A stretch of DNA of 64,000 nt from a virus (taxonomy: Duplodnaviria > Caudoviricetes), in the IMG/VR virus record IMGVR_UViG_3300037067_026010, positions 96,001-160,000 of that record; one strand, 5' to 3'. This document shows positions 4,082-37,448 of the stretch, piece after piece (within the stretch, counting starts at the first letter, position 1; every line of letters starts with the position of its first letter). Both the position numbers and the translations under genes were made by a program. The notes under the pieces are model-generated. The model did not search any database. It saw nothing but the letters and a program-made list of their open reading frames with translations, and was not told where the DNA came from.

Positions 4082-4582
4082 TCAGTCGCGGACCCGTTGC
4101 TCCCGCTCCTCGGCGTCGAGGTTGCGTTGGTAAACGCAGGCAATCGTCATATCGCCCTCGAAATGCTGATCGCCGTGCTCGGGATGCGGCAAAGATGCCA
4201 CGCCGTCGCGGGTCTTGAATACCGGTCCGACGTACTGTGCCGGGATGTCCTCCGTGCCTGGGCAAACCGCACGGATTGCCGCAACCACTTTCTCGGCATC
4301 GCAATCGAACGCGTCGCCGCGTTCCAGGATATGCCGGGCGCCTTGGGTGCTGCCGATGGCCATCTGCCGGTTGAGGCGTGGCTTCGCGCCGGCTGGCAAC
4401 TCCCGAATGCGCACCAGAATCACGTCGCCCTGATGCGACACGGTGCCGATTTCGAAATCCGCGTCCGTGAACGTGCGCGGAGCGTCGTTGACCATCCGCT
4501 CGGGAACCGCTTGCTTGGAGGCCGATTTCTTGGTTTGCTGCTTGGTTTGTTTGGATGCCTTGCTCGCTAAAACTTCCGTCAT
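4082..4582 (-). CDS. Conserved partner of DUF6745 proteins (QGDV...H...HxEH family)
   Basis: HQGDV, ARHIL, HPEH, YQR motifs; directly downstream of the DUF6745 gene. Confidence 0.75.
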   Translation of the reverse strand: MTEVLASKASKQTKQQTKKSASKQAVPERMVNDAPRTFTDADFEIGTVSHQGDVILVRIRELPAGAKPRLNRQMAIGSTQGARHILERGDAFDCDAEKVVAAIRAVCPGTEDIPAQYVGPVFKTRDGVASLPHPEHGDQHFEGDMTIACVYQRNLDAEEREQRVRD

Positions 4583-4733: not shown

Positions 4734-5672
4734 TCAACTTCGGTGGATTGCGTACCGGTCGAGCAGATGGGACATCCACATCTGGGCCTGTTCGCAATTC
4801 TGTATCTCACGCGGAACCCCTAAGGCGTAACGGCGGCCCGTCGACGGGTCGACGAACGCGAAACGCTGCGTACCATCACGCAGCCGGTACAATACCTCAT
4901 CCTGGGCATCCCGATCGTTATGCCGCTGGTCTACGACGGCCGCCCCCGAATCCTTCAAGTAACGCTCCCAGCCGAATCTTTCGATGCGCACGCGCTTGCT
5001 TTCCGCATTGCCGTCCGCTTCGATTTCTTCGAGGGTTTGCTTTTCCGGTGCCATGACGACATTCTTCGGCACCCGTACGCCGTGAATCGCGTACACTTCG
5101 AAGCCGTCGGCATAAGCCGTCGCCGGGCCGTCGTCGCAGTGAAGACGCCCTTCCTCCATGTGCAAGCTTGTCTGCCGCTCCGAAATGACGCAGAACTTCT
5201 CGAGCGGGTAGATCAGGCACGCCTCGTCCAGGCTCTTGAACAAATCCCAAGTTTCCGGATAAGGTTTTACGCCCAATACTTCGCGCATGTACTCGTAGTA
5301 GCTGATGTATCCAGCCCAGAACTGCATATCGGAATAAGGCCACACCAGGGACAACATCGTATCCCCGGCGCGCTTTTGCATTTCCGGCCAGCCAAGATCT
5401 TGCACTCCCAGCGCCCTGGTCCGGAACTCTTCCGCCGGCGTCTCGTCCACGAAAGAGGCCAGCCAGCATACCGCCGCCCATGCGGCTACCGGCGAGGGCA
5501 TAAAAATCGTAACGATCGGCTTCTCGCGGGAAAGGATTTCCGTGTAAAATCGATCGATTTTGCCCAAGAACGTATCGCGTTTGATGCGTTCGCAACTCAT
5601 GCCGCGGGCCAATCCCGCGTCTCGGTACTTATCCAATGCAGCTACCTGTTCCTCGGTAAGTGAGGTAATCAT
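4734..5672 (-). CDS. DUF6745-family protein
   Basis: LTEEQ N-terminus, SP motif, CVISER, GRLHCDDGPA..YADGF.VYAIHGVRVP, N.E.KRV.IERFGWERY, DPSTGRRY.L.VP. Confidence 0.85.
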   Translation of the reverse strand: MITSLTEEQVAALDKYRDAGLARGMSCERIKRDTFLGKIDRFYTEILSREKPIVTIFMPSPVAAWAAVCWLASFVDETPAEEFRTRALGVQDLGWPEMQKRAGDTMLSLVWPYSDMQFWAGYISYYEYMREVLGVKPYPETWDLFKSLDEACLIYPLEKFCVISERQTSLHMEEGRLHCDDGPATAYADGFEVYAIHGVRVPKNVVMAPEKQTLEEIEADGNAESKRVRIERFGWERYLKDSGAAVVDQRHNDRDAQDEVLYRLRDGTQRFAFVDPSTGRRYALGVPREIQNCEQAQMWMSHLLDRYAIHRS

Positions 5673-22992: not shown

Positions 22993-23021
22993 GCTGTGTA
23001 CCTTTTTTTAATAATTTTCAA

Positions 23022-23552: not shown

Positions 23553-23768
23553 TTAATCGCCCGCACCCGCTGCCGCCCGGGGCAACTCGTGGGTTTGCCG
23601 CAGAATTTGCGGCCACAGTTGCCGTAGGACTGGCTGCTGTGCTTGTTCCCAGACCTGTTCTTGGATTTGCCTGCAGACTTGTCCACGGACTTGCTCCTGG
23701 ACTCGCTGCCGAATGTGCCATTCGAACATCTTGGGAACTTGCGATAGCTGTGAACTTTGTATCTTCAT
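23553..23768 (-). CDS. Gln-rich array protein
   Basis: RVQEQVRGQVCRQIQEQVWEQ. Confidence 0.75.
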   Translation of the reverse strand: MKIQSSQLSQVPKMFEWHIRQRVQEQVRGQVCRQIQEQVWEQAQQPVLRQLWPQILRQTHELPRAAAGAGD

Positions 23769-24049
23769 AAGTCACCCTCCGCATCAAACTTGGCCTGCTC
23801 CTCCATGCGGAGTTGCCAAATTTGCGACTCGATCTGCTGACGACACTGTTGATGCACTGGCGGCACGGTTTGCTGCCGAACTTGCTGCTCGATTGGTCGC
23901 CGGATTTGCCGATGGATCTTGTCTATGCCCGCCGGCCAGATCTGTTCTAGGCCCTGCAACAACCCTTGTATTTGCCGCCGAACTCGCCACCCAACCTGTT
24001 CGTCCGCTTGCCGACGAATCTGCTGCAAACTCGAGTTTCTTAGCTTCAT
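23765..24049 (-). CDS. Gln-rich array protein
   Basis: IEQQVRQQ..QIESQIWQ; ends AEGDL. Confidence 0.75.
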   Translation of the reverse strand: MKLRNSSLQQIRRQADEQVGWRVRRQIQGLLQGLEQIWPAGIDKIHRQIRRPIEQQVRQQTVPPVHQQCRQQIESQIWQLRMEEQAKFDAEGDL

Positions 24050-24125
24050 ATATCGCCCTCCCTAGTAAGACTAGTTTGCCGCCGGTAGACCTCCGCGAAT
24101 ATAATACTTACGAACTTTATGCCCG

Positions 24126-24143
24126 GCGGTGCTTAATTACCGC
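24126..24143. repeat. 18-bp repeat copy 4 (reverse orientation)
   Basis: GCGGTGCTTAATTACCGC; supplies the stop of 24137-24352. Confidence 0.9.
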
Positions 24144-24352
24144 GGCCCGTACACGACAGCACTGCGTGCTTGCTCGGCTACTGCATCCCTAAGATGGTCG
24201 TACACGACATCCGTACCTATAAGTGTGCGTCTATCGACCACGCGAAGAACGGCCTGGCTGCACCACGAGCAGGTATGCACAGCCGACAACAGCCCTTTGC
24301 AGCGCTCGCGCACATCATCCCAACTTTGCCAAAGTATCTCACCTTCGCCCAT
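24137..24352 (-). CDS. Array small protein
   Basis: AGGAG SD; VAEQAR. Confidence 0.6.
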   Translation of the reverse strand: MGEGEILWQSWDDVRERCKGLLSAVHTCSWCSQAVLRVVDRRTLIGTDVVYDHLRDAVAEQARSAVVYGPR

Positions 24353-24596
24353 GCTTGACTCCTTGCGTAGCCTCGACCTGTTCCGCACATTCCATAAAAA
24401 TTGGGAGCAATTGTCGGCTGCGTATAGATAACATATTGGTGGGTGCCACCGTCAGCTCCGTATCGCCTGTCAGGCTCCGCATGTCGCACCACAAATTGCT
24501 CATTCCCAGCACGCCGTCACCGATAATACCTACCTGGCGCGATATATGCTCCGAGCGACACCTCACAGCCTCGCGCGCCGGTTCTCTATTGGCCAT
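24339..24596 (-). CDS. Array small protein
   Basis: AGGAGG SD. Confidence 0.6.
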   Translation of the reverse strand: MANREPAREAVRCRSEHISRQVGIIGDGVLGMSNLWCDMRSLTGDTELTVAPTNMLSIRSRQLLPIFMECAEQVEATQGVKHGRR

Positions 24597-24804
24597 GAGC
24601 ACCTCCTATAATTGCGACAGCTTCGTGCTGCACGGCAATCATATCCTGCAACCCATACTGGGCGGGCGCGACGCACCTAAAACAATAAAGCCTGACAGGC
24701 TGCAACACACGGTCGCTAACTTGGGCGATGACGGTGCGCTCCAGCTGCTGCAGGCTGTCGAGTTCGTCGGCCAGCGTTCTGAGTATATATTTATCTTGCT
24801 GCAC
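24586..24804 (-). CDS. Array small protein
   Basis: GTG start after previous stop. Confidence 0.55.
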   Translation of the reverse strand: MQQDKYILRTLADELDSLQQLERTVIAQVSDRVLQPVRLYCFRCVAPAQYGLQDMIAVQHEAVAIIGGAHGQ

Positions 24805-24805
24805 G

Positions 24806-25030
24806 TTACGGCCCCCCTTCCGCTGTTGCCGTTGCCTGGGTGGCAATCTCCGCAGTAATCTCCAAGATAACTGCATTGTCTATTCCGAGCTGCTCCACGG
24901 GGATCTTGACCGCTTGGTGCACTGTGCGCTGCAGTCTCCGCCGCACGGCAGCACTCACTAGCGCCGGGCCGGTCCAGCACAGCGGGGTATGCCGGTCAAG
25001 TTGTTCATGCAGTATTTCGTAGCGCGTCAT
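24806..25030 (-). CDS. Array small protein
   Basis: Ends QATATAEGGP. Confidence 0.6.
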   Translation of the reverse strand: MTRYEILHEQLDRHTPLCWTGPALVSAAVRRRLQRTVHQAVKIPVEQLGIDNAVILEITAEIATQATATAEGGP

Positions 25031-25235
25031 GGCACTTTCCCCCTGTAGTACATTGCTCCACGGCGGCCGCATGAATAATATCGCTTACGTTCACTATGAC
25101 ATCTAGCGGCTGCCAAATCGTGTCCAGCGCTAAAATCCGCACTGCTTTGGTCGAGCCGGATGGCGGGTTCACTATTTGCATGGCGGCTGTGCCGAGCTGG
25201 CGGCATAATTCCTGGCGTATCGGGCCTTTCGTCAT
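25005..25235 (-). CDS. Array small protein
   Basis: ATGA. Confidence 0.6.
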   Translation of the reverse strand: MTKGPIRQELCRQLGTAAMQIVNPPSGSTKAVRILALDTIWQPLDVIVNVSDIIHAAAVEQCTTGGKCHDALRNTA

Positions 25236-25645
25236 GGTTCTATCTCCTGCTCTATTGCCTTGATCAACATCAACCTAAGCACGGCATCCCGCATATCCAC
25301 CGTGTCGGTAACCTCGTCAACTTGCCGGCGTATCGTCACGTCCACCATACGCTTGACCGCATTGTCTTTAGTGCAATACTGCTGCGTCAGGGCCGGGTCG
25401 ACGGCCTTTTGGGTTTGCCGGATGATCTTCGCGCGTCGGGCAGCTGGAATTACCTCATCGGCTACCTGGGCACAAATCACGCTCCGGACGTGCTGTGATA
25501 TGGCGACGCTCACGCCGTCGTAAACTACGTCACATACTCTCCCGGATATGTTGTCCAGTGTCAGCCCGCCGACACCCATCCTGTGCGGCCAATACTCCAG
25601 CTGCTGATGAAGCTGGTCGATCGTAATATGCTTTTTATCGATCAT
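25232..25645 (-). CDS. Array protein, double length
   Basis: 137 aa, same helical pattern. Confidence 0.65.
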   Translation of the reverse strand: MIDKKHITIDQLHQQLEYWPHRMGVGGLTLDNISGRVCDVVYDGVSVAISQHVRSVICAQVADEVIPAARRAKIIRQTQKAVDPALTQQYCTKDNAVKRMVDVTIRRQVDEVTDTVDMRDAVLRLMLIKAIEQEIEP

Positions 25646-25862
25646 GGTCGATTATCGCCTCCTGCACGCAATCTTGAGCGCTGCCGCGCAGCGTCGGTTT
25701 AAGCACGAGGTCTAGAGGCGTATCAAGTCTCTGCAAGACGCGCACGAAGACGTTTTCCGACACATGTACCGTCGGAAGGGCATACCGCGCCAACAGATTG
25801 ACGACGCTGTCCTGGCTTTGCCAGGCAATTTGACTACGGGACATTTTAGATTTGCCGGACAT
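25635..25862 (-). CDS. Array small protein
   Basis: GGAGG SD. Confidence 0.6.
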   Translation of the reverse strand: MSGKSKMSRSQIAWQSQDSVVNLLARYALPTVHVSENVFVRVLQRLDTPLDLVLKPTLRGSAQDCVQEAIIDHDR

Positions 25863-26070
25863 GGGCTGCTACCTCCTCGTGAACCTGGCCTCGTATAACT
25901 CCGCGCAGCACCGTGCTCGAACCGTCCACACGATTCCATATCACCAGCGTTGCCATATGCCTAACACCGCCTGCGACACGTTGGTCCAGGTTTAACGCGG
26001 ACGTTGCCCGTATAATATCTTCCAGAACTTCGTGGACTGCTCGCCGCAGAATATCGCTACGGTTCGTCAT
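25846..26070 (-). CDS. Array small protein
   Basis: Coupled. Confidence 0.65.
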   Translation of the reverse strand: MTNRSDILRRAVHEVLEDIIRATSALNLDQRVAGGVRHMATLVIWNRVDGSSTVLRGVIRGQVHEEVAAHVRQI

Positions 26071-26281
26071 GAGTCAGATCCTTTCTGGCCTGCTCCCTTA
26101 CAACGCTATGCAGCGGTGCAAGCCCTCGTGATACTTGCCCGGTTATAGCATTCCAAATGATGCTGTCATCGAGGTCCCCGGCCACTCGCGCACTAATTGT
26201 AGCGTGGATTTGCTTGTACATAAGATCCACGCCCTGATATGCTCTGCCGCTGATTCGTACTCCGATGTTTGGCTGCTTCAT
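26057..26281 (-). CDS. Array small protein
   Basis: ATGA; VVREQAR. Confidence 0.65.
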   Translation of the reverse strand: MKQPNIGVRISGRAYQGVDLMYKQIHATISARVAGDLDDSIIWNAITGQVSRGLAPLHSVVREQARKDLTHDEP

Positions 26282-26604
26282 GGCGCGCCCGCGTCTATTA
26301 TGTGGGCAGTGCTACGGAACTCACCGGGCTGCAGAACATCGGGCGGGTGGTCGAGCACGAGCCAGCGTCTCATCTCGCGAAGCAGGCGCCATGCTGCTTG
26401 CTCTTGTACGTAGTCAGCCGTGGTCTCGTCGATGTTCGGCCTCGGCGGGCCGATGCCCCAGAGCCTGGTAAACACCTGCGTATTGATCAAGCCGCTGATA
26501 TACCCGCACTCGGCGATGCGCGCATTGCATACCAGCAAAATTTGCTCTGTTATTCGCTTGCCGGCGGCACTCCAGGCTTGTTGCATAATATCATCTTGGC
26601 ACAT
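26278..26604 (-). CDS. Array small protein
   Basis: GGAGGAG SD. Confidence 0.65.
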   Translation of the reverse strand: MCQDDIMQQAWSAAGKRITEQILLVCNARIAECGYISGLINTQVFTRLWGIGPPRPNIDETTADYVQEQAAWRLLREMRRWLVLDHPPDVLQPGEFRSTAHIIDAGAP

Positions 26605-26606
26605 AT

Positions 26607-26834
26607 TTACTCCTCCACGGTAAGCTGGACGTGTTCTTTGAGCTGGGCCCGCAGTAACCGCCGCAGGTTGCCCTGCGGTGCGTTGACGCCTATACGCATG
26701 TCCGAGCGCACGCTGCGTATGAGCTTGCCGGATGCACGCGCCCGCACATTCTCGCTTACCTGTTGACCGGTACTACTCCAGATACGGGCCCAAAGTTGTC
26801 CGAGCACCTGGTCCGTAATGTGGCCTCTTTTCAT
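26607..26834 (-). CDS. Array small protein
   Basis: Ends QLTVEE with the core junction repeat. Confidence 0.7.
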   Translation of the reverse strand: MKRGHITDQVLGQLWARIWSSTGQQVSENVRARASGKLIRSVRSDMRIGVNAPQGNLRRLLRAQLKEHVQLTVEE

Positions 26835-27055
26835 TTTCGTAGGATCTCCTCGCAAAGCTGGTCCGCCTGGTCGTGCACACTCGTGCCCGTCGCCCCCAGC
26901 ACAGTGAATGCGCTCTCTGCATTGCTAAACCGCCCCAACACGCTGGCAAGGCTCACAGCCTCGATATACCCTATCTGGGGCATCTTGAGGATCTGGTTGA
27001 GTACCACCTGACTTTGGATCACGAACAACTGCTGTTCGATGCTATGCGTCTTCAT
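26831..27055 (-). CDS. Array small protein
   Basis: Paralogue of 27334-27564. Confidence 0.65.
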   Translation of the reverse strand: MKTHSIEQQLFVIQSQVVLNQILKMPQIGYIEAVSLASVLGRFSNAESAFTVLGATGTSVHDQADQLCEEILRK

Positions 27056-27311
27056 CGAATACTCCCGGAGGCCCCCCTAACGGCATACCCAACACCTCCA
27101 GCACGGCATCGACAATTGGCAGCCGCATACTACCGGATATGTCGGGCGAAAATGGTGCGTTCCATATTAGGGTGCCGGCCTGCCATCGCACAGCGTCAGC
27201 ACATGCGATCTTCACCGTCTTTTGCGTCGCGTACTCGACGGTCAGTCCTACGGCAGTGCTGGGCTGCCTGCCCACCTGCGTAAAAATTTGGTCGCGTGTG
27301 GATTTAGCCAT
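27042..27311 (-). CDS. Array small protein
   Basis: Paralogue of 27551-27817 (GPPGVFDED). Confidence 0.65.
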   Translation of the reverse strand: MAKSTRDQIFTQVGRQPSTAVGLTVEYATQKTVKIACADAVRWQAGTLIWNAPFSPDISGSMRLPIVDAVLEVLGMPLGGPPGVFDEDA

Positions 27312-27333
27312 AATGCACTTCCTCAGTTTTTTA

Positions 27334-27564
27334 TCATGCGCTCCTGTAGACAAACGGTGTAACTTCGTCATGGGCCTGCCTCAATACGATCCCGCGCATA
27401 CGCATCAGCGCGAAAGACGCACTGCCTACACCGAGAAGGCGCGGATGCGCAAGGTTACCGAGTGCAATTTTGCTGCACCTTGTCCACGGCATCATCACAA
27501 CCACGTCGTGTTGCAACGTTTTTTCTACCACAAGTATTTGCTGCTCAATATTACTCGTCTTCAT
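27334..27564 (-). CDS. Array small protein
   Basis: MKTSNIEQQ; QAHDEV.PFV.RS as in 29227. Confidence 0.65.
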   Translation of the reverse strand: MKTSNIEQQILVVEKTLQHDVVVMMPWTRCSKIALGNLAHPRLLGVGSASFALMRMRGIVLRQAHDEVTPFVYRSA

Positions 27565-27817
27565 CGAATACTCCCGGCGGCCCTAAGACCCGTATGCCCA
27601 ATGTCTCCGCCATGGCCTGTGCAAGCAGCTCGCAAGCACTGTTATTTCCGTGAGTAAACGCCCCGGCATGCACTAGGGGCCAGGTTGCCTGCCAGGCCTC
27701 GATGCCGACTGCGACTCTTACCATCCCGTGCAGTACATGAATGCCGTCCAACCACATACTGTCGCGGGGTTGCGTAACGACCTGCGCGAAAATTCGATCA
27801 CGCCGTGGATTACTCAT
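27551..27817 (-). CDS. Array small protein
   Basis: Paralogue of 27042-27311. Confidence 0.65.
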   Translation of the reverse strand: MSNPRRDRIFAQVVTQPRDSMWLDGIHVLHGMVRVAVGIEAWQATWPLVHAGAFTHGNNSACELLAQAMAETLGIRVLGPPGVFDEDE

Positions 27818-28076
27818 AAGGCAGCTCCTTGGATTTCTCGGCACGTCTCCACAGGGTCAGGGGTCCGGAAGGGAGGAGCACTACCGCCTGCGCGATTATC
27901 GAATCCTCGACTCTGGGCATGAGCCGCATCCGCATGTGCTCGCCTATAAGTCCACGTACCGGCGCCGACACCTGCATCCAGCAAAGCTCCACCGGCTCGA
28001 AATGACCGACCGTCTGGGCCATTACCTGCTTCGTAATTTGTTTCGCAATGTCGTGTTTAGCATCAATCGGGTTCAT
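27810..28076 (-). CDS. Array small protein
   Basis: Coupled. Confidence 0.6.
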   Translation of the reverse strand: MNPIDAKHDIAKQITKQVMAQTVGHFEPVELCWMQVSAPVRGLIGEHMRMRLMPRVEDSIIAQAVVLLPSGPLTLWRRAEKSKELPYE

Positions 28077-28287
28077 GGGCGCCTTTCGTATATGACAGGG
28101 CCGCCTCCCCTAGCAAGCGACGAAGCGGACGCCCTGCGGCGTTCGTAGGAAACCGCTCGATGAGCCACCGGGCAATCTGGCGCTCTAATTGTCGGTAAAG
28201 CGGCCGAGTAATGGCCAACAGTATTGCATCGTAAGGCCGCACGTAGCACTGCATGTGCATGTCGCACCAGCGATCTGTTTTATTCAT
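28063..28287 (-). CDS. Array small protein
   Basis: GGAGG SD. Confidence 0.6.
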   Translation of the reverse strand: MNKTDRWCDMHMQCYVRPYDAILLAITRPLYRQLERQIARWLIERFPTNAAGRPLRRLLGEAALSYTKGAHEPD

Positions 28288-28561
28288 GTGACCTCCAGGA
28301 GCCGTCCTCGATTTGCCCGACTATTTGTCCGCCGATGGCATCAATCATAGCAAGGCTTAGCGCCCTCCCCACGTTGCCGCGCCGCGACGCGAACGGGTTG
28401 CCGAACAGCAGCACCTCCCGCACATGCCAGGAGGGCACGAGGCCGACCGATGCTGGTATGCGACTCTCGATCTGCGCCCGGACTCGGTACTCCGTGTCCG
28501 TGCCCACGTCGATGCGCAACAGCGGCAGAGCGCCGTCGCCGCGAAGATCCATGATCCTCAT
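28280..28561 (-). CDS. Array small protein
   Basis: ATGA, GGAGG SD. Confidence 0.6.
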   Translation of the reverse strand: MRIMDLRGDGALPLLRIDVGTDTEYRVRAQIESRIPASVGLVPSWHVREVLLFGNPFASRRGNVGRALSLAMIDAIGGQIVGQIEDGSWRSHE

Positions 28562-28770
28562 CTTTTTGCCTCCGTTTCCTGCTGGGCCTGCGCTAACATG
28601 CACCGCTGAATTTGCCGCAAGACGACGTTGTTGACACGCGCCTTCAGCAGACGTTCTACGATAGTCTGCACCCGATGGCCCACTTCATAGCGTACTTGCC
28701 TTTCGTGATCGGGTTCCAAAGGCCAAGTCCAGAACACTATATGCGGCCGAGATCGGGTAGCTTGCTTCAC
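28558..28770 (-). CDS. Array small protein
   Basis: GTGA overlap. Confidence 0.6.
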   Translation of the reverse strand: MKQATRSRPHIVFWTWPLEPDHERQVRYEVGHRVQTIVERLLKARVNNVVLRQIQRCMLAQAQQETEAKR

Positions 28771-28982
28771 GGGTACAGCTCCTTCGCGGTGTGCGCGCGG
28801 ACTACGGCACGGGCCTGTTCAATAATGAGCGGGCGGAACCGCACGCGAATAACTGCGCGCACCCTGTCCATCGTAGCCGCCCTGGACTCGGAACTGATGC
28901 CTAGGTCGGCGCTATGCGAATCTGCCGAGAAGGGGCTGACAGGGGATCCCTGCACTTGGCGTAGTATCTGTGCGTACGTCAT
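28767..28982 (-). CDS. Array small protein
   Basis: ATGA; IIEQAR. Confidence 0.65.
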   Translation of the reverse strand: MTYAQILRQVQGSPVSPFSADSHSADLGISSESRAATMDRVRAVIRVRFRPLIIEQARAVVRAHTAKELYP

Positions 28983-29230
28983 CGTCCCACCTCCGCCAGT
29001 TCGTGTGCCGCGCTGCTCACTATATCTTGCATATCTAGGGTAGGTACGTCATACCATTCCCAGAAATCTCGGTCACGCATATTGCATAGGACTTCCGCGG
29101 CGACTTGTCGGTGAATCGTGCCGTCCGCAGGCGCCGTACTGCCCATAATGACTGCCAGTAGCTGGCCGGCGACGCATTCGTGAATACAGCATGCTCGCGT
29201 GATTTGTAATGCGCGCTCGTCAGGTGTCAT
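28979..29230 (-). CDS. Array small protein
   Basis: ATGA. Confidence 0.65.
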   Translation of the reverse strand: MTPDERALQITRACCIHECVAGQLLAVIMGSTAPADGTIHRQVAAEVLCNMRDRDFWEWYDVPTLDMQDIVSSAAHELAEVGR

Positions 29231-29472
29231 GATACGCTCCTACGGACAAATGGTTTGACGTCGTCATGGGCCTGGCCAAGCACGACGTGACGCACCGGCT
29301 GCAGCACCTGTCGCGATACCGCCGCCAATATCTGTTCTGCAACGCGGACTTGTAGCGTTAGTGCCACCCGGCCGTCGAAAGCTGCGCCCTTGAGCCCGCA
29401 GATAGCCCGGTACAGCTCCGGGTTGCACAGCTGTCGCAGTAGTCTCGAATGCAACGCGTGTTTGGGTGTCAT
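29227..29472 (-). CDS. Array small protein
   Basis: ATGA. Confidence 0.65.
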   Translation of the reverse strand: MTPKHALHSRLLRQLCNPELYRAICGLKGAAFDGRVALTLQVRVAEQILAAVSRQVLQPVRHVVLGQAHDDVKPFVRRSVS

Positions 29473-29702
29473 GGCGCGCGCCTTTCTATTTCGATACGCG
29501 CCTGGTCCTCTACTAAATCGTAGATGCCCCCGAACTCGGTGCCGTCACGCGTAAACTGTTGCGTATCCAAAATGGGAAGATGTGGCATCGAGGCGCAGGT
29601 TGCGGAGATAGCGTCGATTACCTTGGTATAGAGGCAATCGGAGACGATCCGCTGCCGCTCGTGCATCAGGGATAGCCGCATTTTTCTGGTTTTTGCTTTC
29701 AT
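29469..29702 (-). CDS. Array small protein
   Basis: Paralogue of 29699-29947. Confidence 0.7.
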   Translation of the reverse strand: MKAKTRKMRLSLMHERQRIVSDCLYTKVIDAISATCASMPHLPILDTQQFTRDGTEFGGIYDLVEDQARIEIERRAP

Positions 29703-29947
29703 AGCGCGTACCTTTCCATTTCGATGCGCGCCTGTGCCGTCACCAAGTCGCAGATGCCGCCAAACCTGGTGCCGGTGCGCCCAAACCGTTGTGCATCCAC
29801 ATCGGGAAGCGGCGGTACTGCACCGTAAACTTTCCCGTGGACAAGAGACAGTATCCTGCCGTAGACGCAGTCCTCGATAGTTCGCTGCTGCACGTGAATC
29901 GTGACCAGACGCTGCATTAGGTTTTTGCGCCGCGCGGGGCTCAGCAT
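29699..29947 (-). CDS. Array small protein
   Basis: GT.FGGI.DLV..QARIE.ER. Confidence 0.7.
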   Translation of the reverse strand: MLSPARRKNLMQRLVTIHVQQRTIEDCVYGRILSLVHGKVYGAVPPLPDVDAQRFGRTGTRFGGICDLVTAQARIEMERYAL

Positions 29948-29949
29948 TT

Positions 29950-30192
29950 TTAGATCTCCTGAATCCATGCGCCCCTCGCTATCTCGATATGGACCTGTGC
30001 CCCTGTCTCCACCAAACCGCAGAGGCTGCCAGCCGCCCTATCGGACTGAAATGGCCGGCCGCGGGCATCCAGCGGCCGCTGCACTGCAGCAGTAACTCGG
30101 CCACTGACATGGCGTAGCACCTGGTCATAGATACAGCTAAAGATATGCCGACCTAGACTGTCCGGCCACCGCGGCATGATATTGTTATTCAT
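29950..30192 (-). CDS. Array small protein
   Basis: TAATG overlap; distant paralogue of the two downstream genes. Confidence 0.65.
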   Translation of the reverse strand: MNNNIMPRWPDSLGRHIFSCIYDQVLRHVSGRVTAAVQRPLDARGRPFQSDRAAGSLCGLVETGAQVHIEIARGAWIQEI

Positions 30193-30446
30193 TAGCGCTG
30201 TACCCTCTGGCCTGTGGCGGTTGCTTGTGCTTCAATTGCCTGGCTTGCAGCCTGTTTAATTAGCCAAACGGCGCCATGATATCGGCTAAGGCCTCCACCG
30301 CCGTGAAGGATACCGACCATTTGCCGCGGAATGGTATCGATGTCAGCAAGGTAGACTCGGTCTTGCATCGGTCCGAGGCCGGCGGCCAATACCTCGCTCT
30401 GGCGCATAAACGCTCGTACTACAGCCGCCTGGCTCTTGTGATTCAT
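30192..30446 (-). CDS. Array small protein
   Basis: ATGA; QATAT. Confidence 0.65.
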   Translation of the reverse strand: MNHKSQAAVVRAFMRQSEVLAAGLGPMQDRVYLADIDTIPRQMVGILHGGGGLSRYHGAVWLIKQAASQAIEAQATATGQRVQR

Positions 30447-30715
30447 AGCAATTCGCCCTCCGGGAATATATGAAATACACCGCCTGCCCTGGTCGAGTGT
30501 ACCGTTTCGTGTTTACCTACGGTCTCATCGACAGCCCGGCAGAGCAGCCGTTGCACGGCACCTTCCCTCGCAAGGCCTGTACCGTGCAGGATGCCGTCCG
30601 ACACCGACGGATTATACAGGTTATTGTTAAACATCGGCAACAAGACGCGCGCCGCCACGTCCATGGTGCACCGCTGCCACATCTGTTGCCATTCCGCTAG
30701 TACTTTACGACTCAT
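30443..30715 (-). CDS. Array small protein
   Basis: GGAGG SD; ends PEGELL. Confidence 0.6.
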   Translation of the reverse strand: MSRKVLAEWQQMWQRCTMDVAARVLLPMFNNNLYNPSVSDGILHGTGLAREGAVQRLLCRAVDETVGKHETVHSTRAGGVFHIFPEGELL

Positions 30716-30923
30716 GCTGACCCTCCACAACTTCCTTTGCTTGATCCACCACGCAACGGAGTATGGCCGATGGTACTTCCTCCGCGGTGATTGCACGCTC
30801 CGCCCTGCCGCGCGTAGGTAGGTCTACCCTGAGGCGGACCGCGCCGTCCCAGTGCAGGAACAACACGGATTTCATGGGTGCCCAGATTTTATTGTGAACG
30901 CAGTAAGCAAGATGCTCCGCCAT
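30705..30923 (-). CDS. Array small protein
   Basis: Ends QAKEVVEG. Confidence 0.6.
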   Translation of the reverse strand: MAEHLAYCVHNKIWAPMKSVLFLHWDGAVRLRVDLPTRGRAERAITAEEVPSAILRCVVDQAKEVVEGQHES

Positions 30924-30964
30924 ATTACCGCCCTTTCATATAACGTGCTTTCGATACCGCAGCC

Positions 30965-30982
30965 GCGGTAATTAAGCACCGG
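30965..30982. repeat. 18-bp repeat copy 5
   Basis: GCGGTAATTAAGCACCGG; supplies the stop of 30972-31175. Confidence 0.88.
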
Positions 30983-31175
30983 GCCTTTTGTCTGTTTCTG
31001 CACGGGCTTGGCCTCCTACGAGATGCCTTACTTGCCCAACGCCGGCATCCCATATTCGATGCGTAAGCTGGTCCATGACCTCGTACATGGTCGCGTTATC
31101 CACGAAAGCCGGGTCCACCACACAGCACTGAATCGATTGGTGCCGCAGGTATTTATACAAGTCCTCCCCGCTCAT
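30972..31175 (-). CDS. Array small protein
   Basis: AGGAGG SD; RIWD...QVR..V..QAR. Confidence 0.6.
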   Translation of the reverse strand: MSGEDLYKYLRHQSIQCCVVDPAFVDNATMYEVMDQLTHRIWDAGVGQVRHLVGGQARAETDKRPGA

Positions 31176-31437
31176 CGGTAGCCTCCTGCGTACCTCGTGT
31201 TTGCGGCGTATCCGCCGGTAAGCGAGGCACTGTAACCACGTTAATATGCGACCATGCTGCGCCGCACACATTATCGTGCAACGGCCCTATGACCAGCGAC
31301 CACACACGCGCTCTAATCGCACGACTGCACTTGGCGGACACAAGCCGCTGACCCAGCACTATCTCAGCCAGCCGTTTCGCATCAATACGGTGTAAAGGTT
31401 CGTCCACCACTTGCCGTTCAATTTTGCTACGAGTCAT
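31153..31437 (-). CDS. Array small protein
   Basis: ATGA. Confidence 0.6.
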   Translation of the reverse strand: MTRSKIERQVVDEPLHRIDAKRLAEIVLGQRLVSAKCSRAIRARVWSLVIGPLHDNVCGAAWSHINVVTVPRLPADTPQTRGTQEATDERGGLV

Positions 31438-31682
31438 CTGCTCCCTCTGTCGTACGGCAATGGCCGATATTCCGTGTCTGCTGCAATATGCTCCTGCACC
31501 GCGCTACTCACGCTATCGTTAAACCGCTCGATTTCAGGCAGCCACGGGGCCGCATAAATCTCTTGGCGACCCTTCTCGTACACATCCAGCAGGCAGGTAT
31601 GCGCTACGGGATGCTGTAGAGCCACCATAATACGATTTGCCGGTTCTTCGTGTAATTGCCGGAATGCTCTGTTTCCAGTCAT
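31434..31682 (-). CDS. Array small protein
   Basis: GGAG SD. Confidence 0.6.
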   Translation of the reverse strand: MTGNRAFRQLHEEPANRIMVALQHPVAHTCLLDVYEKGRQEIYAAPWLPEIERFNDSVSSAVQEHIAADTEYRPLPYDRGSR

Positions 31683-31698: not shown

Positions 31699-32592
31699 TT
31701 AGACCTTGTAGGTCCTCGCCGCGTCGATGCAATCCTTGAGCCACCGTATCGCCGCGTGATACTCCTCGCGGTACTGCGGGTTGGCGGCGCTGCTGTCGGC
31801 ATAAACTATATCGATGGTCTCCGCGAACGCCTTGAGCGTGCAAAAGCGCTTGCATCCGCAGAAAATATGGAGGCACGTCCGCAGTACGACTACCGTAGTG
31901 CTGCGCCCTGCTGATCCAATGCCGCCGAACTGCAGAATACGCAGAATCGGCTTGCCGTTGTACGTGGCACCGTACAGGTCGGCAGAAGCAAAGTTGGTGC
32001 CGCTAAGCGTACTGCCGCTATTGAACGACGCCCCGGACAGATCCGCCGAGGCAAAATTCGCGCCGTCGAGTTTGGCGCCGTTAAAGCACGCATTTTGCAG
32101 ATCGGCGTACTGAAACTGGGCACGGCAGGTGGCTGACGTAAAATCGGCGCCGCGCAGCTGGGCGAGGTCGAAATGCGTCCAACTGCAATGCGCTCCGCGG
32201 AAGTTGGCCCGATTGAGCCTGGCTGTCGCAAAGTTGACGTGATGGCAATGCGTATAGGAGAAATCCGCCCTATAGCCGTCAGCTGCAGTAAAATTGCTAT
32301 GGTCCAGCATCGCATCCCTGAGCTGGGCCCTCGAAAAGTTGGCCCCGGTGCAATCCGCTCCGTCCAGTACGGCTTCTGCCATATTCGCCGAACGAAAATC
32401 CGTTCCGACGAGATCGGCGTAAGACAGCTCGATTTTTCGTAAATCGGCCTTCGGTAGGTTGCGATGGCGGAGTACGACATCCTCGTGCACCGTCCCTGCG
32501 GCGGCAACCTCCTCCAAAGCTTTCCGCAGTCCGCCCGTATACTCGAATAACAGCTTACCGTTGCGATTATGAATTTGCGATATTTTAGACAT
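31699..32592 (-). CDS. Pentapeptide-repeat protein
   Basis: Long run of A(D/N)(L/F)xx repeats; C-terminal GIGS..R.T...I.CGC..F.....F....Y..EY...I domain. Confidence 0.88.
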   Translation of the reverse strand: MSKISQIHNRNGKLLFEYTGGLRKALEEVAAAGTVHEDVVLRHRNLPKADLRKIELSYADLVGTDFRSANMAEAVLDGADCTGANFSRAQLRDAMLDHSNFTAADGYRADFSYTHCHHVNFATARLNRANFRGAHCSWTHFDLAQLRGADFTSATCRAQFQYADLQNACFNGAKLDGANFASADLSGASFNSGSTLSGTNFASADLYGATYNGKPILRILQFGGIGSAGRSTTVVVLRTCLHIFCGCKRFCTLKAFAETIDIVYADSSAANPQYREEYHAAIRWLKDCIDAARTYKV

Positions 32593-32633: not shown

Positions 32634-32894
32634 TTATTGCAAGATTTGCTGGGCTGCTTGCTGCTGGACGAGCCACTGTAGTTGCCCCCTAAGCTGCAGA
32701 GTGACTTGCCAACAGACTCGCTGCCAGATTTGCTGGTCAAGTTGTTGGTGGATTTGCCGGTTGATTTGCCGGCTGATTTGTTGCTTGAAGTTGCACGGGT
32801 CTTGGTAACCGATGTAATCATTGACTTGCTGCACTATTTGCTGCCGGCGTTGCCGGGCAAGTTGCCGCGGGCTTCGTGGTCTTCTTGCCTTCAT
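32634..32894 (-). CDS. Gln-rich core array protein 18
   Basis: QISRQINRQIHQQLDQQIWQ. Confidence 0.75.
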   Translation of the reverse strand: MKARRPRSPRQLARQRRQQIVQQVNDYIGYQDPCNFKQQISRQINRQIHQQLDQQIWQRVCWQVTLQLRGQLQWLVQQQAAQQILQ

Positions 32895-33124
32895 GGTTTG
32901 CCCTTCACGGTAAACACAGTCTGCTGCTCGATTGGATTTGCAATTCGCCTGAAGAGTTCAGGTACGATGCTCCAGCCGACGTGATCTGCAATTTCCGGAC
33001 TGACCTGCCGCTCGATTTGCGCCGAGATGTGTACGCTAATCGGTACCGCGACGTGCCAAAATTGCTGCATCGTTTGCCGGCGGAGTTGCTTCTTGAACCG
33101 ACGCTTTTGGCTTTTTGTCTTCAT
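32891..33124 (-). CDS. Core array protein 17
   Basis: ATGA; ends FTVKGKP. Confidence 0.75.
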   Translation of the reverse strand: MKTKSQKRRFKKQLRRQTMQQFWHVAVPISVHISAQIERQVSPEIADHVGWSIVPELFRRIANPIEQQTVFTVKGKP

Positions 33125-33339
33125 AACTCGCCCTCCACGGTAAGGTCGGCTTGCCGTTGAATCCGCCGTGCCGTTTGCACCCCAATTTGCTGGTCAATTC
33201 GCTGATGGATTTGCTGCCGAACTGTCTCTCCGACTTGCTGTGCGACCGGCTGCCGGATCTGTCGCCAGAGCGGCGTATCGGTTAGTGGCCAGGCTTGCTG
33301 CTGCGCGAGCCGCCGGCGCCTCGCATTTTTTGTCTTCAT
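33121..33339 (-). CDS. Core array protein 16
   Basis: Ends QADLTVEGEL. Confidence 0.75.
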   Translation of the reverse strand: MKTKNARRRRLAQQQAWPLTDTPLWRQIRQPVAQQVGETVRQQIHQRIDQQIGVQTARRIQRQADLTVEGEL

Positions 33340-33542
33340 GCCTTTACCTCCAAGGTAAGTGCGGCTTGCTGCCGGAGCAGCGACTCAAACTGCTGCCGGA
33401 ACTGCTCGATTTGCGGATGCATTTGCTCGATATGCTGCCGGATTTGTCGCCAGACCTGCGGATCGACTGGTGGCCCGGCGTACGGCAACATTTGCTGTAT
33501 GGCCTGCATGACTTGCCGGTCCATTAAATCTACTGTCTTCAT
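33336..33542 (-). CDS. Core array protein 15
   Basis: Ends QAALTLEVKA. Confidence 0.75.
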   Translation of the reverse strand: MKTVDLMDRQVMQAIQQMLPYAGPPVDPQVWRQIRQHIEQMHPQIEQFRQQFESLLRQQAALTLEVKA

Positions 33543-33742
33543 GATTTAGCCGCCGTGATGCGCCAGGCCTGTTGCCGGACTTCCTGGTAGATTGACCCCA
33601 GGCATTGCTGTTCGATTTGCTGCAGAACCTGCTGCTCAACTCGCAGTTCAGCTGGTGGGCTGACTTGCTGCTCTACTTGCTGCCAGAGTTGCTGCCCGTA
33701 TTGCCGGCCACGTAGCTGCCGAGTTAAATCTGTCGTCGTCAT
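33539..33742 (-). CDS. Core array protein 14
   Basis: TAATG; QQLWQQVEQQV. Confidence 0.75.
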   Translation of the reverse strand: MTTTDLTRQLRGRQYGQQLWQQVEQQVSPPAELRVEQQVLQQIEQQCLGSIYQEVRQQAWRITAAKS

Positions 33743-33936
33743 TACCTATCCTCCACGGTAAGTTCCCCTTGGCAGCAAAGGTGCTCAGCAATTTGCCAAT
33801 GGGCTCGCTCCAACGGTATCTGGATATGCCGCCACACCCGCTGCCCGAGGTCCCGGTCGACTTGCTGACGGACTTGCAGGCCGGCGTGCTCCACCAGCCG
33901 CTGCAGTTGCCACTCTATTTCAGCTTTTGTTTTCAT
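33742..33936 (-). CDS. Core array protein 13
   Basis: Ends ELTVEDR. Confidence 0.75.
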   Translation of the reverse strand: MKTKAEIEWQLQRLVEHAGLQVRQQVDRDLGQRVWRHIQIPLERAHWQIAEHLCCQGELTVEDR

Positions 33937-34166
33937 AACTTGTCCTCCACGTTAAACTGGGCTTGCTGATAGACTTGCCACGCAACTCGTCGCCAAACGT
34001 GTTGCTCGGCTTGCCGTTGGAGGTGCTGCCATGCCCGTTGCCTAATTGCCGTATCGACCTGCTGCCGAACTTGCAAATTGATACACTGCTCGAGATTCCC
34101 AAGCTCCGCCAGCTGCGGCAGTTGCACAGTCTGCCCGTTTGGCGGCTGTAGTTGTCTTGCTTTCAT
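33933..34166 (-). CDS. Core array protein 12
   Basis: Ends QFNVEDKL. Confidence 0.75.
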   Translation of the reverse strand: MKARQLQPPNGQTVQLPQLAELGNLEQCINLQVRQQVDTAIRQRAWQHLQRQAEQHVWRRVAWQVYQQAQFNVEDKL

Positions 34167-34387
34167 AAACGGTACTCCACGGTAAGCTCGGCCTGACGCT
34201 GTACGGGTCCCCGGATTTGCTGGATTTGCTGCAAGATATTCTGCTCGATGTGCAACTGCACTTGGGGTTGGTCGAGCACAGTCCTGATGAATGTTTCGGA
34301 CAAGTGAATGGCGGGCGTTATGGTCTGGGCAAGATCCCAATGCAGGGCCTGTTGAAGTTGCCAATGCCTATCAGCTTTTATTTGCAT
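34163..34387 (-). CDS. Core array protein 11
   Basis: Ends QAELTVEYRL. Confidence 0.75.
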   Translation of the reverse strand: MQIKADRHWQLQQALHWDLAQTITPAIHLSETFIRTVLDQPQVQLHIEQNILQQIQQIRGPVQRQAELTVEYRL

Positions 34388-34602
34388 AACGTGTCCTCCA
34401 CGACAAGGCCGGCTTGCTGCTGCACAGGGCGTCGGAACGGCCACCGGAGCAGCCAGGTCTGCGGCGCGACCTGCTGCTCGATCTGGTCTTGAACGTGCCC
34501 TGCCACTCGCCGATCGGCCGCACGCCCGACCTGCCCCAGCAACCCTTGCACCATCCCCCAGGGTTGCAGAATTTGCTGTACAGGGGTATTCGCTATCTTC
34601 AT
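34378..34602 (-). CDS. Core array protein 10
   Basis: Ends QAGLVVEDTLCK. Confidence 0.75.
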   Translation of the reverse strand: MKIANTPVQQILQPWGMVQGLLGQVGRAADRRVAGHVQDQIEQQVAPQTWLLRWPFRRPVQQQAGLVVEDTLCK

Positions 34603-34826
34603 GATTTGCCCTCCAGAACGCGCTGTGTTTGTTGCAGGATGGGTTGTCGGAGGTCCCGCATAGCTTGCCAGTCGAACTGCTGGGCAATCTGGCGCTGGAC
34701 CTGCTGCTGAACCTGTTGCTCGGCACGAGCAGCCGGGTCCCAAATTTGCTGACTGATGGGCAGTTCGACCTGCTGCCAGACTTGTTGCGCGATTCGCCGG
34801 GCAACGTGGCGTGCTACTGGCTTCAT
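34599..34826 (-). CDS. Core array protein 9
   Basis: Ends VLEGKS. Confidence 0.75.
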   Translation of the reverse strand: MKPVARHVARRIAQQVWQQVELPISQQIWDPAARAEQQVQQQVQRQIAQQFDWQAMRDLRQPILQQTQRVLEGKS

Positions 34827-35044
34827 AGCTTGTCCTCCACGGTAAGTTTGACTTGCTGGCAGACCTGCCACGAGGCTTGCCGCCATACCGGCGGCACGAC
34901 ATGCGGGGAGGATCGCGCACGATCCCGGACTAGGACGTGTTGTATCATCTGCTCGTCCATGTATTCGCCCCCCAGCGGTTGTGCCAGGACACGTTCCCAA
35001 ATCTGCTGACATACCTGCTCCCAGATCTGCTCAGCTGTCGTCAT
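34823..35044 (-). CDS. Core array protein 8
   Basis: Ends KLTVEDKL. Confidence 0.75.
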   Translation of the reverse strand: MTTAEQIWEQVCQQIWERVLAQPLGGEYMDEQMIQHVLVRDRARSSPHVVPPVWRQASWQVCQQVKLTVEDKL

Positions 35045-35271
35045 GGCTTGCCCTCCGTGGTGAGTATAATTTGCGGTTGGACGACCGGCTTAATCCGCCG
35101 GGCAATCTGCCGTTCGTATAGCTGCACAGCGATGTGCGTGCGCAACGTCGCCTGGACTTGTTGCTCCACTGGATGGTACGTACGGCACCCAACCTGCTCA
35201 AACACTTGTGCCTGGGTATACTCCCAGATTTGCTCCCATATCCGTTGCTCAAGCCCCTCTGCCGTCTTCAT
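35041..35271 (-). CDS. Core array protein 7
   Basis: Ends LTTEGKP. Confidence 0.75.
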   Translation of the reverse strand: MKTAEGLEQRIWEQIWEYTQAQVFEQVGCRTYHPVEQQVQATLRTHIAVQLYERQIARRIKPVVQPQIILTTEGKP

Positions 35272-35495
35272 GGCTTGTCCCCCACGATAAGTGTAATGTG
35301 CTCGTGCATCGCCGCCCGGATTTGTTGTACCGCTCGCAGGGTAGCTTGGTTCCTGACCTGCCACAGCACTTGTGCCGGGAGCTGCTTACAGATCTGCCTC
35401 CAGATTGGATCCCAGATCTGCGGCGTGATCCGCAGCGAGCCGTGTTCCCAGGTTTGCTTCAGTATCTGCTGCTTGCGTATCTTTGTTGGCTTCAT
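35268..35495 (-). CDS. Core array protein 6
   Basis: Ends LIVGDKP. Confidence 0.75.
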   Translation of the reverse strand: MKPTKIRKQQILKQTWEHGSLRITPQIWDPIWRQICKQLPAQVLWQVRNQATLRAVQQIRAAMHEHITLIVGDKP

Positions 35496-35701
35496 GGCTT
35501 GTCCTCCACGGTAAGTTCAACTTGCAGACGGAGTGGCAGTTGGTATAGCCGCTTCACTTGCGCGTTAATCGGCCAACAGGTTTGCTGCAGGATTTGTACC
35601 CGGACCCGCTGATGCACTTGTAGCTCGTCCGCCGGCTTGATCGGTATCCTAAAGTCCCGCCAGGTTTGCCAGATCTGCTGCCGGAGCTGATCTTTTGTCA
35701 T
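35492..35701 (-). CDS. Core array protein 5
   Basis: Ends ELTVEDKP. Confidence 0.75.
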   Translation of the reverse strand: MTKDQLRQQIWQTWRDFRIPIKPADELQVHQRVRVQILQQTCWPINAQVKRLYQLPLRLQVELTVEDKP

Positions 35702-35916
35702 GATTTATCCTCCACGGCAAGCTGGCTTTGTCGTTCGGTGTGCTGCATGAATTCCCGCATAACTTGCCACCAGTTTGGCCATTCGACCTGCCGTAGGGCC
35801 TGCCCGCGAATTGCCTGGTTAACTTGTTGCTCGATGGACCCCGAACACTGCTCCCAGATCCGCTGACAGATCTGCGGCTCAACCTGCAGCTGCTGTTGGA
35901 GCTGATCTTTTGTCAT
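35698..35916 (-). CDS. Core array protein 4
   Basis: Ends QSQLAVEDKS. Confidence 0.75.
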   Translation of the reverse strand: MTKDQLQQQLQVEPQICQRIWEQCSGSIEQQVNQAIRGQALRQVEWPNWWQVMREFMQHTERQSQLAVEDKS

Positions 35917-36152
35917 CCCTTGTCCTCCGCAGTAAGCCTGGCTTGCTGCCGGACGGGTGCCCGGATTTGCCCTGTAATTTGCCACCAGATCAGCGACTCG
36001 ATTTGCTCATAGATTTGCTCCCGCACCTGCTCCGGGACTTGCTGGTGCACTTGCCAGGCGGGTTGCCGCCCGATCTGCATCACCAGTTGCCTCTCAACAT
36101 GACCCCAGGCCTGCTGCCGTATTTCCCACTCAATGTGTCTTGTTGTCCTCAT
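35913..36152 (-). CDS. Core array protein 3
   Basis: Ends QQARLTAEDKG. Confidence 0.75.
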   Translation of the reverse strand: MRTTRHIEWEIRQQAWGHVERQLVMQIGRQPAWQVHQQVPEQVREQIYEQIESLIWWQITGQIRAPVRQQARLTAEDKG

Positions 36153-36355
36153 GGTTTGCCCTCCACGGCAAGCTGGCTTTGTTGCTCGATGTGCTGCTGT
36201 AATTCCCGCATAGATCGCCACCAGATTGGCCGTTCGATCTGCCCTAGGATCTGCTGGCGGGTTGTATAGTCAACTTGTTTCTTGACGGACCCACCGGCCT
36301 GCTCCAGTAGTTGCCATTCGAGTATTTGCCATTCAAGTGTCTCTACTGGCGTCAT
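36149..36355 (-). CDS. Core array protein 2
   Basis: TGATG; ends QSQLAVEGKP. Confidence 0.75.
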   Translation of the reverse strand: MTPVETLEWQILEWQLLEQAGGSVKKQVDYTTRQQILGQIERPIWWRSMRELQQHIEQQSQLAVEGKP

Positions 36356-36582
36356 CACTTGCCCTCCACCGTAAGCCTGGCTTGCTGCTGGACGGGTGAT
36401 CGAATTTGCCCTGCAATTTGTCCCCAGACCGACAGAGCGATTTGCGCATCGATTTGCTCCAGCACCTGCTCCTGGACTCGTTGGTGCGCTTGTTGCCGCC
36501 CGATCTGCACCGCCAGTTGTATTGCCTCGCAAGGCTGCGCACAGCACTGTGCGTATATGCCCAACCATCGACCTGTCTTCAT
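36355..36582 (-). CDS. Core array protein 1
   Basis: Ends QQARLTVEGK. Confidence 0.75.
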   Translation of the reverse strand: MKTGRWLGIYAQCCAQPCEAIQLAVQIGRQQAHQRVQEQVLEQIDAQIALSVWGQIAGQIRSPVQQQARLTVEGK

Positions 36583-36617
36583 AATTCGCCCTCCGCAGTA
36601 ATCCCTGGTTTGCAGCC

Positions 36618-36623
36618 ATTATA
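36618..36623 (-). promoter_or_regulatory. -10 box (TATAAT) ahead of the array
   Basis: Plus-strand ATTATA, 35 bp upstream of first ATG; no clear -35. Confidence 0.5.
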
Positions 36624-36673: not shown

Positions 36674-36707
36674 AATCCCGCTGTATTTGGCTAAGAGATA
36701 TCGTGGC

Positions 36708-37448
36708 TTAAACCACGTTGTTTTTTACGCCAAAAGATGCGTTTCCGTTGATATTTCCGGTCGTAGAAATGCCGCCGTAAGACTGAATAGGATGCTGATT
36801 CGGCGATTGATTTGCCTTCCCAGTCGGACCAGGAGCCATCGTCGTACTCGCTGCCAGAACCGCAGGCTGTGGCCTACGAGCCAGCAGGTCCATAACACTC
36901 GCTGTATCAGCTCCTACAGCCGACCCTCCCGGCTGCGGCGCCATAGGGCTCGCCACACCGCCTAATCCGGCTGTAGCAGGCGCTACGGCTCCTAAGCCAG
37001 ACGGCTGCGCTGTATTAGGTAATACAGCCGCCTTCTTTGCTGTATCAGCTGCTACAGCCGTACAAGGAGCTACAGCCATATGCCGCTGTACGGCTGCTGC
37101 CAGCAACTGCGCAGCCTTGATTGCTTGTAAATCAAACGGATCGGAGACAGGAGCTGCTGTAGGTGTTGATGTGCCACAGAGCATGGCGCCATCCTCGATA
37201 TTTGCGTATCCTGCCTCTTTTAACAATCGATAGGGTACGTAATCGTCCAGAACCGACGCCGACTTGGGATGCACGGGGATTCGCAGAAGTTGCAAGAGCT
37301 GCTCTGCGGGGTTTTTCGTTATTTTCGCGGCAGCTTGCTTGGAAAACCCGGAGTTGCCGTAACGAAGCAAGTCAAAAGGGCACAAGGCGGCCGTCGGCTT
37401 CGTGCCGGATGCCTGATCGCAATGCGTAAGTGGTAAAACTGTCGGCAT
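36708..37448 (-). CDS. Ala/Pro-rich putative virion protein
   Basis: K-x-A motifs; C-terminal PI..YGG....G.INGNA.FG.KN; start uncertain. Confidence 0.55.
   Translation of the reverse strand: MPTVLPLTHCDQASGTKPTAALCPFDLLRYGNSGFSKQAAAKITKNPAEQLLQLLRIPVHPKSASVLDDYVPYRLLKEAGYANIEDGAMLCGTSTPTAAPVSDPFDLQAIKAAQLLAAAVQRHMAVAPCTAVAADTAKKAAVLPNTAQPSGLGAVAPATAGLGGVASPMAPQPGGSAVGADTASVMDLLARRPQPAVLAASTTMAPGPTGKANQSPNQHPIQSYGGISTTGNINGNASFGVKNNVV

Follow-up and report, generated by a model that had tools for sequence, protein, structure and literature searches.

A 64,000-nucleotide window of phage DNA (bases 96001–160000 of the 210,569-bp IMG/VR virus record IMGVR_UViG_3300037067_026010, whose completeness is given by CheckV as complete) carries on its minus strand, at 32634..36582, an array of 18 translationally coupled mini-genes. 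On balance, this array is probably the externalised and since diverged variable module of a DUF6745 (PF20530) system, the products of which would bind P0151, a core protein without repeats that is encoded in the same window. Each unit would represent a helical module of approximately 70 amino acids made of degenerate x-x-Q-[V/I/L] tetrapeptide repeats, and in most phages of this kind the same module would correspond to a hypervariable array lying between the N- and C-terminal domains of the DUF6745 protein itself. P0151 would have lost its internal array, the module being encoded instead in trans as a set of separate mini-proteins.

The array was delimited by its open reading frames (ORFs) and their overlaps, a period of four residues, the coding frame and a profile match. 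As the original prediction had described, the 18 mini-ORFs are consecutive, start with ATG, encode 64–86 amino acids and follow one another without gaps on the minus strand, with starts at 36582, 36355, 36152, 35916, 35701, 35495, 35271, 35044, 34826, 34602, 34387, 34166, 33936, 33742, 33542, 33339, 33124 and 32894, and a final stop at 32634. Its description of the proteins was likewise borne out: the N-termini read MK(T/P/A) or MT(K/T/P), most C-termini read Q-Q-A-x-L-T-V-E-(G/D)-K-x, and the interiors are divergent (mean pairwise identity ~28%, best pair 52%). The four-residue period takes the form x-x-Q-[V/I/L], with autocorrelation at lag 4 reaching z=13.4 for V/I/L and z=7.8 for Gln against shuffled sequences, and the periodicity holds on at lags 8 and 12. 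There are ~6.2 Q-[VIL] dipeptides per unit, and the composition is rich in Gln (19.8%, 4x the genome level) and Trp (3.9%, 2.3x the genome level). A profile built from the units matches all 18 of them (E 3e-28 to 2.4e-12), and the annotated frame scores highest by phage codon usage in every one, with a codon log-odds of 0.226 per codon, where a reference set of 81 long genes from this genome gives 0.22. All 18 ORFs are real protein-coding genes and translationally coupled paralogues. Unit 3 is predicted to fold into an all-helix protein (residues 4–27, 29–38 and 41–78; predicted local distance difference test score, pLDDT, 84); it has no sequence relative in the PDB, and the units have no match above threshold in Pfam, PHROGs or NCBIfam.

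Coupling of the units is visible at each of the 17 junctions, where the stop of one unit overlaps the start of the next: 14 overlaps are of the ATGA type (4 nucleotides), two are of 1 nucleotide and one is of 10 nucleotides. A GGAGG Shine–Dalgarno (SD) sequence lies at −12 to −8 from the next ATG, within the V-E-(G/D) codons, at 14 of the 17 junctions and in the leader that precedes unit 1, in agreement with the earlier description. The same motif stands before only 3 of the 81 reference genes, and the SDs of the array are therefore unusually strong for this phage. From the SD and the overlap of stop and ATG at the junctions, we infer that all units should be made together, i.e. that they are expressed simultaneously.

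The link to DUF6745 proteins came from searching 1.84 billion representative proteins exhaustively with the profile, which gave 391 matches. The non-self matches examined were mostly proteins of 300–600 amino acids in which a central (x-x-Q-V)n array is followed by PF20530 (DUF6745); the top ones, from E 9e-25 down, each contain 3–6 matched stretches together with PF20530. Free-standing relatives were absent from the best 150 of the 391 matches, every small match being one of the window's own units. From the other direction, ~30 of the 77 homologues of the core were found to contain internal arrays (xxSV, xxQV, xxSL and others) spanning ~30–195 amino acids, a range that takes in the length of the units. 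A word-indexed protein search with the units returned self matches only, megablast against 50,697 phage records detected no relatives of the array, and no paper on DUF6745 was found in the searched literature.

The genome encodes exactly one PF20530 protein, P0151 (312 amino acids; 4734..5672, minus strand; 90.3 bits against a cut-off of 27, and also matched by phrog_31813). P0151 is devoid of an internal tetrapeptide array, its best period-4 run being 3/24, and alignment shows that the arrays of its relatives are inserted after P0151 residues 87, 95 and 112, between the N-domain, marked by an S-P motif, and the C-region, which opens with a conserved Y-G-Q-H-D-like stretch. The fold model of P0151 has a pLDDT of 87.5 and a predicted template modelling score of 0.79; Foldseek found nothing in the PDB at E<=0.001, the PDB holds no sequence relative either, and the best hit of a wide VIA-align search (Z 5.2 over 56 residues) was uninformative. 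Immediately downstream of the core, at 4082..4582 on the minus strand, lies a candidate member of the partner-gene family that accompanies DUF6745 cores elsewhere, encoding a protein of 166 amino acids with Q-G-D, R-H-I-L and H-P-E-H-G-D motifs. It was recognised by BLASTP through its alignment (E=4e-10) with the gene behind the core of a second phage, L025 (IMGVR_UViG_3300045957_000043). The phrog_27831 model of the partner had no match in the genome and BLASTP against the partner of a third phage, L002 (IMGVR_UViG_3300025889_000291), gave none, such that the link of 4082–4582 to the partner family runs through L025 only.

A model of the complex between P0151 and unit 3 supports binding of this unit to the repeat-less core. 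In three runs the model reached an interface score (ipSAE) of 0.83, the best control scoring 0.02, with at least 96% contact agreement between runs and a pLDDT of 86 for the partner chain. Among calibration pairs, this mark was attained by 58 of 80 solved complexes and by 2 of 110 mismatched ones. The modelled interface involves core residues 1–25, 46–76 and 95–145, reaching residue 200, and adjoins the site at which relatives carry their built-in array. The suggestion of the original prediction that the mini-proteins could be interchangeable specificity subunits has thus gained a candidate core with a supportive complex model; binding is predicted only, and for one unit.

Repeat-less cores were found together with free-standing mini-genes in other phages. 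L002 has a core without repeats, 27% identical to P0151, beside a phrog_27831 partner, and there are at least 10 free-standing repeat mini-genes (61–100 amino acids), several of which are chained by ATGA and which share a conserved tail with a purine-rich SD. The repeat-less core of L025 is 37% identical to P0151 over the C-region, with two xSQL mini-genes and the partner flanking it, and in L037 the partner is followed by a QV mini-gene, the core being cut at the contig end. Exactly 15 array-bearing cores in IMG/VR loci were examined, and no free-standing mini-genes were detected near them; the few other period-4 regions near such cores are a second core copy or unrelated low-complexity sequence. 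The pairing of repeat-less core with free-standing mini-genes is nevertheless suggestive rather than strict, because four repeat-less cores (L013, L018, L020 and L040) had no mini-genes, either in their records by an xxQV-type profile or within 10 kb by a period-4 scan.

The way in which the units have changed was examined within the array itself. Units 1 and 3 (52% identical in amino acids, 70% in nucleotides) and units 2 and 4 (49% and 71%) reveal a two-unit duplication. The original prediction had proposed a library of helices under diversification; in these two youngest pairs, the ratio of nonsynonymous to synonymous change (dN/dS, by NG86) is 0.77 and 0.87, not above 1, which does not bear out diversifying selection. 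By column class, the ratio is 0.79 for framework and 0.90 for variable positions. Judged from these comparisons, change in the units appears to be fast and nearly neutral. Within the units, 12-bp periodic remnants account for 8 of the 11 rows returned by Tandem Repeats Finder; these are runs of only 2–3 copies with a 68–90% match, and there is no near-identical 12-bp tandem array. Such remnants are compatible with an origin of the units in a 12-bp array, later decayed.

Taken as the externalised module of a DUF6745 system, the array would be transcribed as one message and its units read by termination–reinitiation, with GGAGG placed in the L-T-V-E-G/D-K-x codons and the stop overlapping the next ATG. 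Each mini-protein would then dock where the domains of the core meet and on its helical N-domain, beside the site of the relatives' array. One core could in this way be dressed at once with many alternative surfaces, in place of repeat slippage in a single array over generations.

Several points weigh against this explanation. What likens the units to DUF6745 arrays is a periodic and compositionally biased pattern, for which convergence rather than descent is possible. The complex model covers unit 3 only, and it may recall the intramolecular packing of arrays learned from family members; moreover, the calibration of the ipSAE mark applies only roughly to this model, for which own alignments were used. 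The array lies 27 kb from the core, whereas mini-genes flank the core in L002, L025 and L037, and the four repeat-less cores named above go without mini-genes. Finally, a dN/dS of ~0.8–0.9 is equally compatible with weak constraint.

Some of the same points would be expected if the units were instead a separate family of small helical early proteins specific to this lineage, acting for instance in host takeover or as decoys on targets of their own and doing no work with the DUF6745 core. Their likeness to the arrays would then come from a shared amphipathic period of four. We regard this as possible but the less probable of the two explanations. Besides the distance from the core and the repeat-less cores that stand alone, it is favoured by the way the array runs on into ~40 small ORFs, which share its period (lag-4 z=9.0) but are not joined to the family by profile, and by the ESM Atlas, in which the nearest neighbours of unit 3 are clusters of family-less viral hypothetical proteins of 62–63 amino acids (score 0.90). 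It leaves aside, however, that the single DUF6745 gene of this genome lacks exactly this module, that at least two further phages show the pairing, with cores that share only 27–37% identity with P0151, and that the complex model scored far above its controls.

The junctions themselves bear on a further explanation. Synonymous conservation at the junctions exceeds what the SD and the encoded amino acids require. For Leu, 12 of the 13 junction codons are CTT, which over the whole genome accounts for 11% of Leu codons (p=3e-11); CAA encodes 14 of 17 Gln residues, GCC 8 of 9 Ala and ACC 8 of 10 Thr, whereas codon usage at the conserved interior columns is ordinary. Across the last 13 codons, the synonymous difference per site (pS) amounts to 0.47, compared with 0.66 in the interior. 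Recombinational homogenisation and selection on the context of re-initiation are both possible sources of this conservation. A candidate RNA hairpin with CTTACC and GGCAAG arms and the SD in its loop was rejected: 65% of cells pair, as in shuffled sequences (272 of 500 reach this level), covariation shows no excess and RNAalifold gives a consensus energy of ~0.

A variant of the junction had been noted in the leader before unit 1, and 17 of 24 bases indeed match. The leader (36583..36617, minus strand), which supplies the GGAGG and ATG context for unit 1, was defined by alignment to the tail of unit 3; the stretch 36589–36617 aligns best to that tail, with a score of 34 where shuffled leaders reach at most 27, and in the stop frame it reads ..I-T-A-E-G-E-L-stop. 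The leader is the decayed tail of a former unit. The comparison with repeat-spacer arrays that was drawn from it is superficial, because the ‘repeat’ codes for protein and carries a ribosome-binding site; its mean column identity is 76%, and the ‘spacers’ are homologous in-frame ORFs.

These features could suggest that the array is primarily a recombination cassette store, in which the ~30-nucleotide junction serves as a site for duplication, loss, reordering and donation of units, and expression is secondary. The excess synonymous conservation, which a conserved hairpin does not explain, would agree with such a role, as would the decayed unit tail in the leader and the duplication of units 1–2 and 3–4 at 70–71% identity in DNA. 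The exact 13-nucleotide junction word CTTACCGTGGAGG is moreover found in a solitary family member 6 kb from the distal end of the array (26607..26834, minus strand; 75 amino acids, ending ..Q-L-T-V-E-E; E 1.5e-13 after one iteration), where it lies ahead of an ATG at 26604. Against this, the ORF of every unit is intact, starts with ATG behind a strong SD and follows normal codon usage, and the units thus seem built for expression, not silent. An acceptor gene with the junction word was not found elsewhere in the window, and similarity along the array is no lower with distance, the one duplication aside; altogether this explanation seems improbable. That the ORFs are untranslated, being non-coding repetitive DNA or the reverse of an opposite-strand gene, is hardly credible, for although long plus-strand ORFs also exist as a by-product of CAG/CAA-rich sequence, the annotated frame outscores the others in all 18 units, with values like those of bona fide genes, the relay of SD, ATG and stop overlap is unbroken, the period sits at the amino-acid level and the neighbouring genes are all on the minus strand.

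The externalised-module explanation can be carried further. The DUF6745 core and its partner might act as a combinatorial recognition or counter-defence machine, loaded in trans with dozens of co-expressed subunits that form a standing library, new members arising by unequal recombination at the ~30-nucleotide junction; this extended version is speculative and, as a whole, unlikely. A role of the system in phage–host conflict may be proposed by analogy with the unrelated protein gp54 of mycobacteriophage Tweety and its counterparts Che8 gp57 and PMC gp51, which represent a tetrapeptide-repeat, mutationally tunable counter-defence protein in which changes to the array alter the outcome against host defence (PMC2884959; PMC9262239). 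An anti-host-defence role for the units described here is only an analogy.

Family members were also detected outside the array. In addition to the solitary member, profile matches on the minus strand comprise a member of 94 amino acids (23765..24049), one of 71 amino acids coupled to it (23553..23768) and a more diverged member of 81 amino acids (29227..29472), which brings the family to 18 in the array and at least four scattered. The ~40 further small ORFs lie at 20565–31682 on the minus strand, encode 66–137 amino acids with 90% coverage and many stop/start overlaps, and retain their V/I/L period of four at lag 8 (z=8.6); upon iteration of the profile over these ORFs (20.5–31.7 kb), only four came into the family at E<=1e-3. 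The array and these mini-genes take up ~16 kb in all. Searches with the junction word gave no match in IMG/VR, and two metagenome matches, being without a unit-like ORF, were set aside as chance matches.

The array and the further mini-ORFs are separated by a gene for a pentapeptide-repeat protein (PF00805, 110.9 bits) at 31699–32592 on the minus strand, which starts 41 nucleotides past the final stop of the array and has an AAGGAAG SD of its own. Some pentapeptide-repeat proteins are DNA mimics. On the upstream side, a TATAAT hexamer at 36618..36623 (minus strand) is a possible −10 element of unit 1, called by hexamer match only and with no −35 element, and a short GC-rich hairpin at 36702–36717 (minus strand) directly follows the stop of an upstream gene of 293 amino acids and stands ahead of the leader; the latter was listed as terminator-like by the scan, its T-run being weak. 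The promoter and terminator scan called no sigma-70 promoter and no intrinsic terminator bounding the array.

Nearly all genes of the window are on the minus strand, and the phage is very distant from described phages. Most of its large ORFs (~20 tested) lack a Pfam or PHROG family, the only matches being an AAA ATPase, a weak RecA-like protein, DUF1016_N, RNase_T and a weak GT2. The original prediction had placed RecA and RuvC close to the array; the sole RecA-like match is weak (20.9 bits against a cut-off of 27) and 26 kb away, and there is no RuvC among the window ORFs scanned. The sole tRNA of the window is a tRNA-Ile with anticodon TAT (94 nucleotides; 17489–17582, plus strand).

Other arrangements of DUF6745 were encountered in the IMG/VR contigs. 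A distinct subfamily of 484–500 amino acids (L027, L032, L034, L036 and L039, two of these contigs being ~200 kb) has a long region before the conserved C-domain that is not a tetrapeptide array, and no mini-genes were found in these records. L015 encodes two array-bearing DUF6745 proteins (5260–6663 and 9716–10768), ~3 kb apart and with different repeat types. In L014 (1775–3121) the core contains an imperfect, Ala-rich tetrapeptide array of the A-x-D-A / A-A-I-D type, whose composition resembles the A-A-x-x repeat of Tweety gp54 more closely than does that of the Q-V type.

Phages commonly encode DUF6745 proteins whose tetrapeptide arrays change quickly (77 homologues in one search and hundreds of array-bearing matches), and the family is known but uncharacterised; a trans-encoded, diverged module would be a variant form of it. 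As a natural split form, it would mark the array as a separable module. If the docking is real, the virus would present many alternative surfaces on one scaffold simultaneously, from a protein library hard-wired in its genome. The array also illustrates that the conserved C-terminus of a protein can be shaped by a ribosome-binding site.

The closest known counterparts are phage proteins of the DUF6745 (PF20530)/phrog_31813 family that carry the tetrapeptide array inside, for example the family matches of Microcystis phage Ma-LMM01 and gene 38 of the Mycobacterium prophage prophiGD102-1. The units share with these the x-x-Q-V four-residue helical repeat, with Trp, Arg and Gly frequent at the variable positions, and the genome encodes the same core domains, with a candidate gene of the partner family beside the core. 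Here, however, the repeat lies outside the core, in 18 or more separate and much more degenerate mini-proteins encoded 27 kb away, and the 12-bp microsatellite of the arrays is reduced to short remnants. L002 and L025 are similar in having a repeat-less core, a partner gene, separate mini-genes (60–100 amino acids there), ATGA chaining and an SD borne in the tail, but their mini-genes are near-perfect repeats that flank the core and end in ..E-Q-T-K, whereas the present units are ~28% identical, stand in one 4-kb block far from the core, end in L-T-V-E-G-K and belong to a jumbo genome.

In its translational layout, the array resembles the common ATGA-coupled phage operons, in which the stop overlaps the next start and the SD lies inside the upstream coding sequence. 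It departs from ordinary operons of this kind in that one ~30-nucleotide junction is reused 17 times among paralogues, with synonymous sites conserved outside the SD. With Tweety gp54 the units have in common a tetrapeptide array, central in gp54, with two fixed and two variable positions and Trp among the variable residues; the repeat of gp54 is A-A-x-x, not x-x-Q-V, and gp54 has no match to PF20530 or any other Pfam family. Tweety gp54 is a single polypeptide that varies by the number of its repeats, whereas the system described here is a set of separate proteins, and the likeness is one of design, not of membership.

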